Part shown: positions 30,861 through 34,539 of the stretch, piece by piece
How positions within the stretch are numbered: position 1 is the first letter of the stretch
How the letters are laid out: every line of letters begins with the position of its first letter
Origin: Nanobdellati archaeon
GTDB lineage: Archaea > Nanobdellota > Nanobdellia > Woesearchaeales > JAADFO01
Assembly: GCA_013152815.1 (NCBI GenBank)
Contig: JAADFO010000051.1
Location: forward strand, 1-35,010
Direction: 5' to 3'
Length of the DNA stretch: 35,010 nucleotides
Notes under the pieces: model-generated
What the model saw: the letters and a program-made list of their open reading frames with translations, nothing else
Database searches by the model: none
What the model was told of the DNA's origin: nothing
Position numbers and translations under genes: made by a program

Positions 30861-31328
30861 TCAGGAGCCGATGAGATGCTCATGGACCACAAGATCGTCG
30901 GACAGGTACGTCTCCCGCTTGATATCGTCAAGCACGAAGAAGACCTCTTTCTTCCTGAGCTTGAACTCCTGTTCGATCTTTTCGAGGAACCCGTCCAGCT
31001 CCCGCATGTTGGCGAAGACCATCTCGACCAGGAAGTCATAGCCGTTGTTGATCCTGCGGAGGTTGTTGACAGCAGGATTCTTCTTGAGCCGCTGGAGAAG
31101 CGCCGCCTTCTGCTCTGGATGCACCTTGAGGACCATCAGGGCAGAGTACAGCCCCATACGCTCGAAGGCGAGCAGGACGGTGAATTTCCTGATGAGCCGG
31201 CCGTCCAGCTGGCGTATCTTGTCAAAGATGGTAGATATGGGTATGTGGGTGTTCCGGCTCATGGTGGTGAGCTTGGACCTTGCGTTGGCTCTCAGTCGCT
31301 GCAATATCTTATATTCCGCTGGGTTCAT
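30861..31328 (-). CDS. Lrp/AsnC family regulator
   Basis: KILQRLRANAR HTH, IRKFTVLL, C-terminal RAM-like domain; GGAGG SD before ATG 31328. Confidence 0.9.
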   Translation of the reverse strand: MNPAEYKILQRLRANARSKLTTMSRNTHIPISTIFDKIRQLDGRLIRKFTVLLAFERMGLYSALMVLKVHPEQKAALLQRLKKNPAVNNLRRINNGYDFLVEMVFANMRELDGFLEKIEQEFKLRKKEVFFVLDDIKRETYLSDDLVVHEHLIGS

Positions 31329-31559
31329 GGTCGTTCCTCCGAACATCTGTTCATGGCAGGGCCTTCCGGAAACATTACGTCATCTCTGGAAGCAATTTCC
31401 CTGCACCCTCCTCGCTATCTGAGGATAGAAGATCACCGGTTTTTTCACCAAGCATAAGAACGGCGGGAAGGATATAAGCCTTTCGTTTGTTCCGTATATT
31501 GCCTGTTGTTTGGAAAATAAACGAAATATTTATAAAAAACCGAACATTTGTTCTGGAAC

Positions 31560-32030
31560 ATGGATGACACTGACAGGAAGATCGTCAAGGCGCTGCAGGA
31601 AGATTCCTCCGGTTCCATGAGACAGATATCCCGCATCACCGGAGTGGCGCTGACGACGGTCCATTCCCGGCTCAGGGCTCTGAAAGAGAAGGGAGTGATA
31701 CGGAGATATACCCTGGACATAGACCATGACAAGCTCGGCTACCATGTCCTGGCCATCGTGAACGTGACCATCGGCTATGACTTCGTGAGGAAGACCGGCA
31801 CGACACAGAATGAGCTGGTGCAGCTGTTCATGCAGGAGGACGAGGTGGAAGAGGCATTCTCGGTGACCGGAGAGACCGACATCATCCTCAAGGTCAGGGC
31901 AAGGGGCATCGATGACCTCAACAACTACCTGATAGGCCAGGTAAGGAAGCTGCCCGGCGTGACCAAGACCGTCACCCAGGTGGTGCTGTATGAGGGGAGG
32001 AAACAATCGATAAACAAGCCTTCTGCATAG
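31560..32030 (+). CDS. Lrp/AsnC family regulator
   Basis: MDDTDRKIVKALQED…RLRALKEKGVIRRY…DKLGY…VTGETD; TATA CGAAATATTTATAAA about 25 bp upstream. Confidence 0.93.
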   Translation: MDDTDRKIVKALQEDSSGSMRQISRITGVALTTVHSRLRALKEKGVIRRYTLDIDHDKLGYHVLAIVNVTIGYDFVRKTGTTQNELVQLFMQEDEVEEAFSVTGETDIILKVRARGIDDLNNYLIGQVRKLPGVTKTVTQVVLYEGRKQSINKPSA

Positions 32031-32126: not shown

Positions 32127-32382
32127 AATCAGAAATCTCGCCGCTCGGAGCTATCCCCTGCCTAAAGGCCAGGGGTATGAACGCTCCTCGCATCAATAGG
32201 CGAGATTTCTGGTGTTACATTGGGTTTGCGCGCTGAAGCACGGGGTATCAAACCCAACATAACAATCAGAAATTCCGCCGCTCGGAGCTAGGTTAAGACC
32301 AAAGGTTTGCGTGCCAGAAACGCACAAGCAGTTCCGGGCATCCCCGACCTAAAGTGCGGGGTATGAAACCCAACGCAACAAT
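32127..32382. repeat. Cluster of hairpin repeats resembling IS200/IS605 ends or REPs (3 copies) plus a 27-bp direct repeat
   Basis: CCCCTGCCTAAAGGCCAGGGGTATGAA, GCGCGCTGAAGCACGGGGTATCAAACCC, TCCCCGACCTAAAGTGCGGGGTATGAAACCC; AATCAGAAAT..CGCCGCTCGGAGCTA at 32127 and 32264. Confidence 0.8.
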
Positions 32383-32413
32383 AAGTAAAAAAACATTTCT
32401 TCTTTTTTAGGAA

Positions 32414-32743
32414 TTAATATTTAAATCTTCTCTCATAATCTTTATGGCTCATCCATTCTAAAATAATTGATAAAATTTTAATCTCTCCATTTGCCACAGA
32501 ATAGATCAATCTCCAACCTTTCGGCAAATCATATTTCCAAAGATTATCAATTCCATATTTCTCAATGTAAACTTTCGGGATTAATCTTTTTTGTATCCTG
32601 ATCCCGCTAAAACCATTTTCTTCCAAATCCTCAAAAGCCCGACAAATCCATTTATACAATTTTTTGTCTTCGGTTTTAGAATCTTTTAACTCTTCAAAAT
32701 TCTTCTGAACTTTTTCATCTGCAAACTTTATTTCTGATTTCAG
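32414..32743 (-). CDS. RelE/ParE-like putative toxin (109 aa if it starts at CTG)
   Basis: NLWKYDLPKGWRLIYSV…HKDYERRF; frame open upstream of the track start to a CTG overlapping the partner's TGA. Confidence 0.75.
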   Translation of the reverse strand: MKSEIKFADEKVQKNFEELKDSKTEDKKLYKWICRAFEDLEENGFSGIRIQKRLIPKVYIEKYGIDNLWKYDLPKGWRLIYSVANGEIKILSIILEWMSHKDYERRFKY

Positions 32744-33024
32744 TTTCTCCAGCTCAGATTAGGTTTAGATAAATACTTTTTTACTAACTCCGGATTCCAA
32801 ATCCAAACAATCCACCCTTCTTTATCTCGAGCTATTTTTCCAGATTCTAAAAGGTAGTCAAAAATAACACAAAAAGTTTGATAAATCATTTTTTTGGGCA
32901 GAGCTTCCCAAAGAGCTTTTTTCTTGTATTCTCCCGAGTTTTCTCTAATAAAATCCTCCATCCTCAGAATAGTATCTAATTGGGGATAATGTAAAATATT
33001 TTTTTCTAACATCGCTTGCGGCAT
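32740..33024 (-). CDS. Small wHTH-like protein, putative antitoxin/regulator
   Basis: HYPQLDTIL…LWEALPKKMIYQTF…DYLLESGKI; overlaps the toxin start; own TATA and operator. Confidence 0.75.
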   Translation of the reverse strand: MPQAMLEKNILHYPQLDTILRMEDFIRENSGEYKKKALWEALPKKMIYQTFCVIFDYLLESGKIARDKEGWIVWIWNPELVKKYLSKPNLSWRN

Positions 33025-33025
33025 G

Positions 33026-33060
33026 GTTATACATACTTGTATAACTATATAAAACTTTCG
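33026..33060 (-). promoter_or_regulatory. BRE/TATA plus palindromic operator of the TA-like cassette
   Basis: Minus strand CGAAAGTTTTATATA; perfect inverted repeat GTTATACA-TACT-TGTATAAC (33026-33045) between TATA and ATG. Confidence 0.75.
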
Positions 33061-33087
33061 TTTTTGAGTTTTTGGAAAATGACCTCC

Positions 33088-33118
33088 TCCCCGACCTAAA
33101 GTGCGGGGTATGAAACCC
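33088..33118. repeat. Fourth hairpin repeat, identical over 31 bp to 32341-32371
   Basis: TCCCCGACCTAAAGTGCGGGGTATGAAACCC. Confidence 0.9.
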
Positions 33119-33135
33119 CAGCACGAATCAGAATA

Positions 33136-34353
33136 TCAAACAGCTTCCAGCTCCAATAACGCGGAAACATTCAAATGACTGGTAAACAAGACATTCGTAC
33201 CCTCCAAACTATACTCGCCATCGATATTCTCATTGAAAACAATCACCTGTTCCGGCCTAAACAGCTCTATGAACTTTCTCATGGACTTTGTCGGTTTCGA
33301 ATTAAGGAGCTTTGATTTCACTTCAATACCCGTTATCTTCTCACCAGCCACGACGACAAAATCCATCTCATAGCGATTATTAAGGTTCCAGAACCTCAAC
33401 TCTCTGCCACCTCGCTTCAGTTCATTCCCGATAAAACTTTCGTACACCTCGCCCTTATCTGACCTCAGATACAATGGGTTGAAATTCTTTGTGATGCTGT
33501 TCTTCATGCCCAAATCCTGAAAGATCGCCTTGGAAGACCTGATGACCTCCTTGCGCTTATTCTTAAGAAAAGGCCGAACCAACGCCAACACATAGGTCTT
33601 CTCAAGAACATTGAGTATCTCATTGACCTTATTCCGGTTTATATCTGTGTTTAACGAAATGTTCGTCTTTTTCAAGATCTTCGCATCCTGCAAAGCAACC
33701 AATTGCATGACCTGCTCAAACGCAAAACTATTCTTGTACATGAGAACATCCCGTATCTCTTTATACAGGTACGTCTGAACAAGCTGCTTCAGGTCAGCCT
33801 GCTTATCCTCAGAGGTGATAATCGCAGGATAACCACCATATAAAAGATATTCCTCAAACAGGTCATGCAGCTGCGCCAAATCAGCCAGCTTTCTTACTTT
33901 CCTCAAAAGCACCGCCTTACTCTTGCTCTTATACGCAATAAATTCTTTGAAAGAAACAGGATACATCTCGATAATGTTGACACGCCCGACCAGAAACTGC
34001 AATGAACGTATGGTCAGCTCAGGATGAGAAGAACCCGTGATGAACAACTTGGTCTTCTGGGTGTCATAAATATATTTCAACTGCTTGCCACCCTCACGAG
34101 CATACTGGAATTCATCGATGAACAGAACCTTATTGGGTACAACATATTGCTCAACGAAGAGCTTAATGTTCATGTTGAAGAGGTTAAGTATCTCAGTGTC
34201 CTCAAAAGTGATGAACTGCGCATCTGCTGTCATCTCATACAGTTGCTTGAGAATGGTAGTCTTGCCGACCTGCCTCGAACCAACAAGAGCAGTTATTTTC
34301 TTTGCATACCGTTCCTTTTCAAGACGCGTAAATAAATCCCGTTTTATCAGCAT
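33136..34353 (-). CDS. AAA_14 ATPase with C-terminal DUF4143/PD-(D/E)xK-like domain
   Basis: GSRQVGKT Walker A, LFIDEFQ Walker B, TGSS, LVGR, YGGYP, EMDFV…IEVK; start ATG 34353 about 25 bp behind AAAAGCTTATAAATA. Confidence 0.9.
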   Translation of the reverse strand: MLIKRDLFTRLEKERYAKKITALVGSRQVGKTTILKQLYEMTADAQFITFEDTEILNLFNMNIKLFVEQYVVPNKVLFIDEFQYAREGGKQLKYIYDTQKTKLFITGSSHPELTIRSLQFLVGRVNIIEMYPVSFKEFIAYKSKSKAVLLRKVRKLADLAQLHDLFEEYLLYGGYPAIITSEDKQADLKQLVQTYLYKEIRDVLMYKNSFAFEQVMQLVALQDAKILKKTNISLNTDINRNKVNEILNVLEKTYVLALVRPFLKNKRKEVIRSSKAIFQDLGMKNSITKNFNPLYLRSDKGEVYESFIGNELKRGGRELRFWNLNNRYEMDFVVVAGEKITGIEVKSKLLNSKPTKSMRKFIELFRPEQVIVFNENIDGEYSLEGTNVLFTSHLNVSALLELEAV

Positions 34354-34539
34354 AATAGGCAAGATAATGTTATTATTTATAAGCTTTTTGTGAATTCCCG
34401 AGGAATCTGCACAGATACTGTGCAGAATCCTGAAGATTTTGTACATTATTCTTATGAGAAAACACGCAGGAGCAGATTAACCCCCATCTAGTGGTTACAG
34501 CCGAAAAGCATATAAATCAACAGTGCAACAAGAAAGAAC

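Follow-up and report, generated by a model that had tools for sequence, protein, structure and literature searches.

As described in PMC3119063, the PATEs of Haloquadratum walsbyi (terminal-only HqIRS46, ISHwa23) have no genes and no terminal inverted repeats, carry similar palindromes near their termini and a conserved terminal target oligonucleotide, and are found inserted beside or in other elements. Their 52-bp terminal-only forms, in which the two ends are fused, arise by deletion between duplicated palindromes. In the IS608 paradigm, as set out in PMC3201880, a guide of four bases lies 5' of each sub-terminal hairpin, the left cleavage site is located 5' of its hairpin and outside the element, and the right site is located 3' of its hairpin and inside the element. 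Pairing is crossed for the first two bases, so that the first guide base pairs with cleavage base 2 and the second with cleavage base 1. REP sequences and BIMEs, which are associated with RAYT (TnpAREP), are intergenic hairpins that are dispersed or grouped in small clusters and have the same motif at both sides, and integrons (IntI, attC) can have a TA-like unit placed between two hairpin-forming sites.

The stretch of DNA analysed here (the window, 35,010 nt) is part of the genome of a Nanobdellati archaeon (G000; assembly 90.8% complete) and includes a pair of small genes bracketed by identical hairpin repeats. Counterparts of the above features are seen at this locus, but it differs from each of the four systems. 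Relative to the H. walsbyi PATEs of PMC3119063, the family is found in a different host group and has a different sequence, both of its ends are folded into long stems, and one of its right-end types finishes in the TGAT of the target, which gives the appearance of a 4-5 bp target duplication and allows tandem stacking. IS608 as described in PMC3201880, and the IS200 elements of genome G003 and others of the order, share the hairpin and guide anatomy, whereas the units in the window are without tnpA or tnpB, their assembly holds no intact cognate transposase, and several left ends break the guide rule. Unlike REPs, the family has ~20 copies rather than hundreds, its paired hairpins are direct and not inverted, no RAYT gene is present in G000, and the transposases whose ends match are placed with IS200 by their scores and fall below the RAYT cut-off. 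Unlike integrons, the sites form no array and have no linked integrase; they are complete mobile elements in their own right, and the cargo is also found in their absence. The reading favoured here, with a probability of roughly 0.8, is that the repeats are the hairpin ends of three PATEs likely inserted separately on either side of a mobile TA-like gene pair.

Hairpin repeats and elements in the window

The repeats described in the initial annotation were all recovered. The 31-mer at 32341..32371 on the plus strand, a right-end-type arm fused to a left-end-type arm at the loop, recurs without change and in the same orientation at 33088..33118, with a spacing of 747 bp. Further, diverged copies of the hairpin were found at 32154 and 32225, as were the two larger stems that enclose them and the 27-bp direct repeat at 32127/32264 (93% identity). 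The DNA between the identical repeats is AT-rich (31% GC, as compared with 53% for the genome). The AAA_14/DUF4143 gene (33136..34356, minus strand), which belongs to the same AT-rich accessory stretch and lies outside the repeats, ends with its stop at 33136, at a distance of 6 nt from the last element. The AAT reported at a near-constant distance from GGGGTA is located 17, 16, 16 and 15 nt after it in the four copies, but that of the first copy is read here as coincidental, since it is internal and absent from the equivalent copies on contigs C15 and C43. The reading strand also required revision, as the informative strand of the hairpins is the minus strand.

The four hairpins are assigned to three gene-less, IS200/IS605-derived elements (PATEs) on the minus strand, located at 32128-32264, 32265-32380 and 33079-33126. 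As judged by folds and repeats, these units of 48-137 nt are non-coding and lack terminal inverted repeats, but contain near-terminal palindromes. Element a (32128..32264, minus strand) appears to be a full two-hairpin PATE, with the guide GATA at the left end and the guide CATA and the terminus TGAT at the right end. It folds into two long stems (z -8.1), matches copies on C15, C20 and C24 at 76-92%, and has relatives of 133 nt in genome G029. The target of element a, TGAT at 32265-32268, is also the terminal TGAT at the right terminus of element b, and the tandem of a and b would have formed because the one served as the target of the other. Element b (32265..32380, minus strand), which holds the first 31-mer, is interpreted as a core-deleted PATE with a single hairpin and the guide CATA; this guide matches TGAT at the right end and mismatches the left-end target TTAT. 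Element b shares 90% identity over 107 nt with a unit that stands alone on C12. Element c (33079..33126, minus strand), interpreted as a terminal-only PATE, holds the second 31-mer and is 48 nt in length, or 52 nt with its TGAT target at 33127-33130. On the minus strand it consists of this target, 14 nt, the guide CATA, the hairpin and 10 nt that include the terminal TCAT. The left end of element c fits the guide, and the right-end TCAT is mismatched at guide position 1. Its stand-alone relative is a unit on C71 (87% over 54 nt). A fused left/right anatomy like that in the window was also seen, again without genes, in loci L128, L129 and L148.

The assignment to PATEs is based on the inclusion of each hairpin in a complete unit with two termini, on the near-identical units that stand alone elsewhere, on ends that match an intact IS200 in related genomes, and on the covariation of guide and end tetranucleotides. 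A DDE-type MITE with a 5-bp target duplication was also considered and was ruled out, given that terminal inverted repeats are missing and the ends match IS200. The apparent target duplication would be explained by the identity of the target motif and the right-end motif.

In the mechanism proposed, a Y1 TnpA supplied in trans would peel off the minus strand, cutting at the tetranucleotide specified by the four guide bases that precede the hairpin on its 5' side (TGAT in the case of CATA), and the excised circle would be pasted 3' of another TGAT. As one end type finishes in TGAT, every copy would provide a new target, giving tandems such as that of a and b. The single-hairpin units b and c would likely have formed by deletion between similar left and right hairpins, leaving the lopsided 31-mer. 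The gene pair would have come by a route independent of the hairpin, into AT-rich accessory DNA that gathers insertions.

Ahead of the element cluster, positions 30861-32030 include two divergent Lrp/AsnC regulators. This arrangement had no orthologous counterpart in G001-G003, and no orthologous empty site was found in these genomes, in which the best Lrp matches are 30-36% identical and have no neighbours in common with the window.

Relationship to IS200/IS605 elements

The initial view of the hairpins as IS200/IS605-type ends, with a cleavage motif at a fixed distance, was borne out: positions 33080-33108 in element c agree in 27/29 nt with an intact G003 IS200 at its right end. The transposase of this IS200 scores 83 bits, against an NCBIfam IS200/IS605 cut-off of 55 bits. 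The two transposases with matching ends that were tested both exceed that cut-off, and they score 31 and 45 bits for RAYT, against a cut-off of 80. A second element of G003 (L040) has TGAT upstream of a similar left hairpin, and L041, apparently the other half of this element, has a GATA-guided right end with the terminal TCAT.

The right-end motif was identified in 29 of 401 genomes of the order, a tally that includes the unpublished G134, the locus of which is omitted from all later counts. Of the 17 loci with 500 nt or more available, 10 have a tnpA match immediately upstream. An intact cognate transposase was not found in the 90.8%-complete G000 assembly, the only Y1 gene of which has a stop and different hairpins, and no TnpB domain was detected in G000. 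The single tyrosine recombinase gene in G000 (PF00589, on C1) has no hairpin match within its 3-kb locus.

A separate, broken IS200-type element with an in-frame stop is located on C11 of G000 (L001:640-1310). Its right end fits the guide rule (GATG/TCAC), and it adjoins a small, TA-like AbrB-like/RelE-like pair (names assigned by eye). The IS200 on C11 and that in L033 of G029 were ruled out as cognate partners of the family by their different hairpins.

As compared across loci, the guide and cleavage tetranucleotides covary as in IS608. There, guide base 4 pairs with cleavage base 4, which agrees with the AAAG/TTAC pair given in PMC3201880. In the 29 loci examined, the fourth cleavage base of the GA-guided right ends, which the search pattern leaves free, complements guide base 4 in 23/23 cases that include non-independent kin (GAAG/TCAC 12, GATA/TCAT 9, GAAA/TCAT 1 and GAAT/TCAA 1). 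The remaining six loci are five left/right hybrids, that of the window among them, and one register shift. In a sister subfamily (G003, G011, G029, G038 and G046), most of the copies shown have AATA or AAAA guides and TTAT at both ends; relative to the window type, CATA with TGAT, guide base 1 has changed to A together with a change from TGAT to TTAT. CATA-guided left ends are preceded by TGAT in 16 of 18 cases, with metagenome loci excluded. For the GATA-guided left ends in G000, the rule holds in one of five cases and fails in the other four, including element a. The clean covariation of guide and cleavage motifs may be useful when similar repeats are annotated.

A first metagenome scan for the units returned 0 loci. 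Five loci were recovered in a second scan, none of them near tnpA or the gene pair; as these had been picked on the target motif, their use would have been circular and they were left out of the guide counts. The single viral match to the pattern looks like chance.

Distribution of the hairpin family

An nhmmer profile built from 16 seed copies was run on G000 and on the reversed genome. It gave 15 matches at E<1e-8 and several weaker ones in G000, as compared with a best E of 0.88 in the reversed genome, and the repeat family is therefore real beyond chance. Curation led to 21 loci in G000, plus one lone end on C46. Many of the copies are at gene 3' ends, and the neighbouring genes (34 flanking ORFs scanned) are mostly ordinary ones (metK, rpl3, LemA, MFS, radical SAM), with ParE-like and nucleotidyltransferase genes among the others. 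Related units were detected by BLAST in 6 of 60 other genomes. The pattern matched 11 times on 11 contigs in G029 and nine times on eight contigs in G003 and, with one copy per contig nearly throughout, the copies in these genomes enclose no short cassette. A second bracketed unit of cassette size was not found in G000, where the next same-strand pairs are ~4 kb apart around DNA of host GC. The bracketing of the gene pair by repeats is in itself not far beyond chance: for 21 random loci, a pair on the same strand and no more than 750 bp apart is expected to occur at least once with P = 0.10.

One 133-nt copy in G029 interrupts an ORF, and its removal, with one target motif kept, restores an open frame (149+150 aa). 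This was the case for 1 of the 7 parsed copies in G029, the remaining six having no long frame across the joint. Because of the interrupted ORF, the gene-less copies, initially annotated as empty sites, are on sequence grounds judged to be complete mobile elements.

The initial annotation had proposed a dedicated integron-like platform, with the hairpins as recombination sites that shuffle cassettes and the gene-less copies as empty sites. Such a platform could account for identical, same-orientation repeats that hug a self-contained AT-rich unit, and for an enrichment of copies beside accessory genes, the ParE-like and nucleotidyltransferase genes included. However, it now appears extremely unlikely, as there is no array, the copies occur singly at dispersed places in three genomes, gene-less units are able to insert into an ORF, the sole tyrosine recombinase (C1) is without a hairpin in its 3-kb locus, and the cargo has its own promoter and is site-free in 80/80 homologous loci (the best 80 of 151). 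Copies that are scattered genome-wide, mostly between ordinary genes and without relation to cassette boundaries, are largely what the annotation itself had named as contrary to its proposal.

The part of the proposal that survives is that the copies are enriched beside AT-rich accessory DNA and that the locus has the geometry of an accidental composite. Seven of the 21 elements lie within 300 bp of AT-rich islands (binomial 1e-5), of which there are 32 that, with margins, cover 3.9% of the genome. This enrichment fits target bias or co-acquisition, and a role in capture predicts the same. IS200/605 elements and TA pairs are described as co-occurring in the variable regions of Acidianus in PMC3119797.

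The placement of many copies at gene 3' ends would also be expected if the hairpins had been kept as RNA elements, i.e. as terminators, stabilisers or HgcC-like small RNAs, after DNA processing was lost. A weak Rfam match to HgcC (33066-33196, minus strand; 25.9 bits vs a cut-off of 50) and the PATE-derived RNAs reported in Halobacterium (PMC4615843) agree with this explanation, but the same report ties HgcC to an IS200/IS605 right-end hairpin, so that the match restates the origin of the sequence. As the 31-mers were not called as terminators, the covariation concerns cleavage motifs and the copies are not at orthologous sites, the explanation is very unlikely, though the hairpins may have a secondary RNA role. 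A sigma-70 promoter scan was disregarded, being inapplicable to an archaeon.

Two single left-type hairpins in G000 (C28:26988-27052 and C60:26586-26645) have the target motif on both sides, and have apparently lost the first stem-loop cleanly. In G029, L021:1500-1880 is a conglomerate in which a TGAT-type element is followed ~30 nt later by a TTAT-type element and then by a hairpin of a different IS200 type.

Origin of the identical 31-mer

The 31-mer is lopsided. Its first 14 nt agree fully with the right-end arm of the consensus and its last 17 nt depart by a single change from the left-end arm, so that the two consensus arms joined together have one mismatch to it. As judged from this composition, the 31-mer would be a fused left-end/right-end hairpin, like the core-deleted 52-bp PATEs of Haloquadratum. 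Both terminus combinations have full-length parents in the genome, on C20 for element b and on C33 for element c, and the flanks of b and c outside the 31 bp differ on both sides. Chimeras of extant copies come within one mismatch of the 31-mer in only 1 of 88 pairwise combinations, and the 31-mer in b is unchanged while the flank of this element has drifted by ~9%. The exact identity of the two 31-mers is the weakest step in the separate-insertion reading, which has to invoke either local conversion or a solo lineage common to both copies (30/31 in C71).

The same identity, despite the drifted flank of b, could also be explained if c contributes the left end and b the right end of an accidental composite (32265-33126, 862 nt) with the gene pair as cargo, or if the pair was captured by recombination via the 31-bp hairpin. 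The outer ends, TGAT at 33127-33130 (left of c) and TGAT at 32265-32268 (right of b), fit the guide CATA, and the inner ends, TCAT at 33079-33082 and TTAT at 32381-32384, do not. If the pair were excised through the repeat, by a 747-bp deletion, a unit resembling that on C12 would remain, and according to PMC10055086 TnpA moves cargo between left and right ends and can pick a right boundary that is farther away. Against a composite, every copy has both of its own termini, and both combinations exist as full-length parents. The TCAT mismatch also occurs in the C33 element and is thus a family trait, the four TGAT sites inside the module would offer nearer cut sites, and no second copy was found at another site or in another genome among those searched. 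On balance, an accidental composite or recombinational capture is considered unlikely. The broader idea that gene-less IS200 hairpins are portable capture sites in DPANN archaea, with a TnpA acting in trans to move the pair as a single-strand circle of 862 nt, is more doubtful still. If it were true, PATEs would be natural builders of cargo transposons, and a composite that was shown to move would amount to a naturally occurring IS200-type unit that carries cargo, by which TA pairs could spread among DPANN archaea.

Under the preferred reading, in which the PATEs were inserted separately, the locus warns against inferring a cassette system as a matter of course from identical hairpins on either side of a gene pair. 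It also illustrates in detail how PATEs occur in a genome of Woesearchaeota type, with autonomous relatives identified. Among the titles listed in a literature search, none dealt with PATEs of DPANN archaea or with IS200 composites that naturally carry TA genes, the term 'PATEs' also matching 'Patescibacteria'.

The enclosed gene pair

The gene at 32414..32743 (minus strand) encodes a RelE/YoeB-fold toxin-like protein. Its Pfam YoeB/ParE matches are below the cut-off, and the RelE-like assignment made previously was supported by predicted structural similarity to PfiAT, YoeB and RelE (Foldseek E 2e-4 to 9e-4). The ORF is corrected here to 109 codons, with CTG at the position where 10/10 of the close homologues shown have ATG. 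Its partner, located at 32740..33024 (minus strand; 94 aa), is a predicted winged-helix protein and a likely antitoxin or regulator. The winged helix assigned initially is retained on the basis of the structural model and the top Foldseek rows, but the matches are weak (best E 0.02), and no Pfam or NCBIfam match was found for this protein. PDB sequence searches returned nothing significant.

The promoter and palindromic operator that had been ascribed to the pair are visible in the sequence at 33026..33060 on the minus strand, as a BRE/TATA-like promoter (33046-33060) and an operator-like palindrome with 7-bp arms (33026-33045), and are conserved in the hairpin-free homologous loci shown. With overlapping small genes, a RelE fold, a predicted DNA-binding partner and an operator-like site, the pair matches the layout predicted for a type II TA system of the RelE family, and a homologue of the winged-helix gene is directly upstream of the toxin gene in most homologous loci. 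The pair represents a fast-moving TA-like family without a name. Homologues are largely from records titled Woesearchaeota, Pacearchaeota or Nanoarchaeota. Without a Pfam or NCBIfam family above the cut-off, the pair of winged-helix and RelE-fold genes is shared by distant DPANN genomes at identities as high as 99%, and it is also present in some records labelled as bacteria.

Mobility of the gene pair

For the comparison of homologous loci, the best 80 of 151 relatives were kept, with identities of 59-99%. The hairpin brackets the pair in 0/80 of these best-ranked loci, two of which have one weak, distant match, and nucleotide similarity among the loci ends at the promoter and at the toxin stop. 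As many of the 80 genomes may lack the hairpin family, 12 more toxin-family loci were checked in G000, G001, G003 and G029, and 0/12 are bracketed by the hairpin. One public read run contained 0.05 of the words and gave contigs at ~32409-33067 plus low-depth scraps, which derive from other organisms and include no joints.

A model-free scan detected direct repeats scoring at least 40 around the pair in 5 of 69 usable loci, as compared with 4 of 119 shifted controls. These repeats are unrelated sequences and not the hairpin of the window. Their presence could be taken in favour of capture, though the excess over the shifted control is modest. In L054, L049, L087 and L045, direct repeats of 43-101 bp that consist of unrelated local sequence flank the pair, often abutting the toxin stop, and the flanking repeat in L054 looks like the 3' end of what is presumably rtcB (named from a motif). 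This suggests homology-assisted insertion of a very mobile pair.

L200 in G003, which holds a distant homologue of the pair, has remnants of IS ends only upstream of the promoter. Just upstream of this promoter, L200:860-1060 includes a TCAT-targeted, GATA-guided hairpin and an inverted remnant of an IS200 left end. In three loci labelled as Thermoplasmata/Methanomassiliicoccales (L106, L107 and L113), a different, GC-richer repeat of up to 137 nt (L106) is present on both sides of the pair and is possibly another mobile repeat family.
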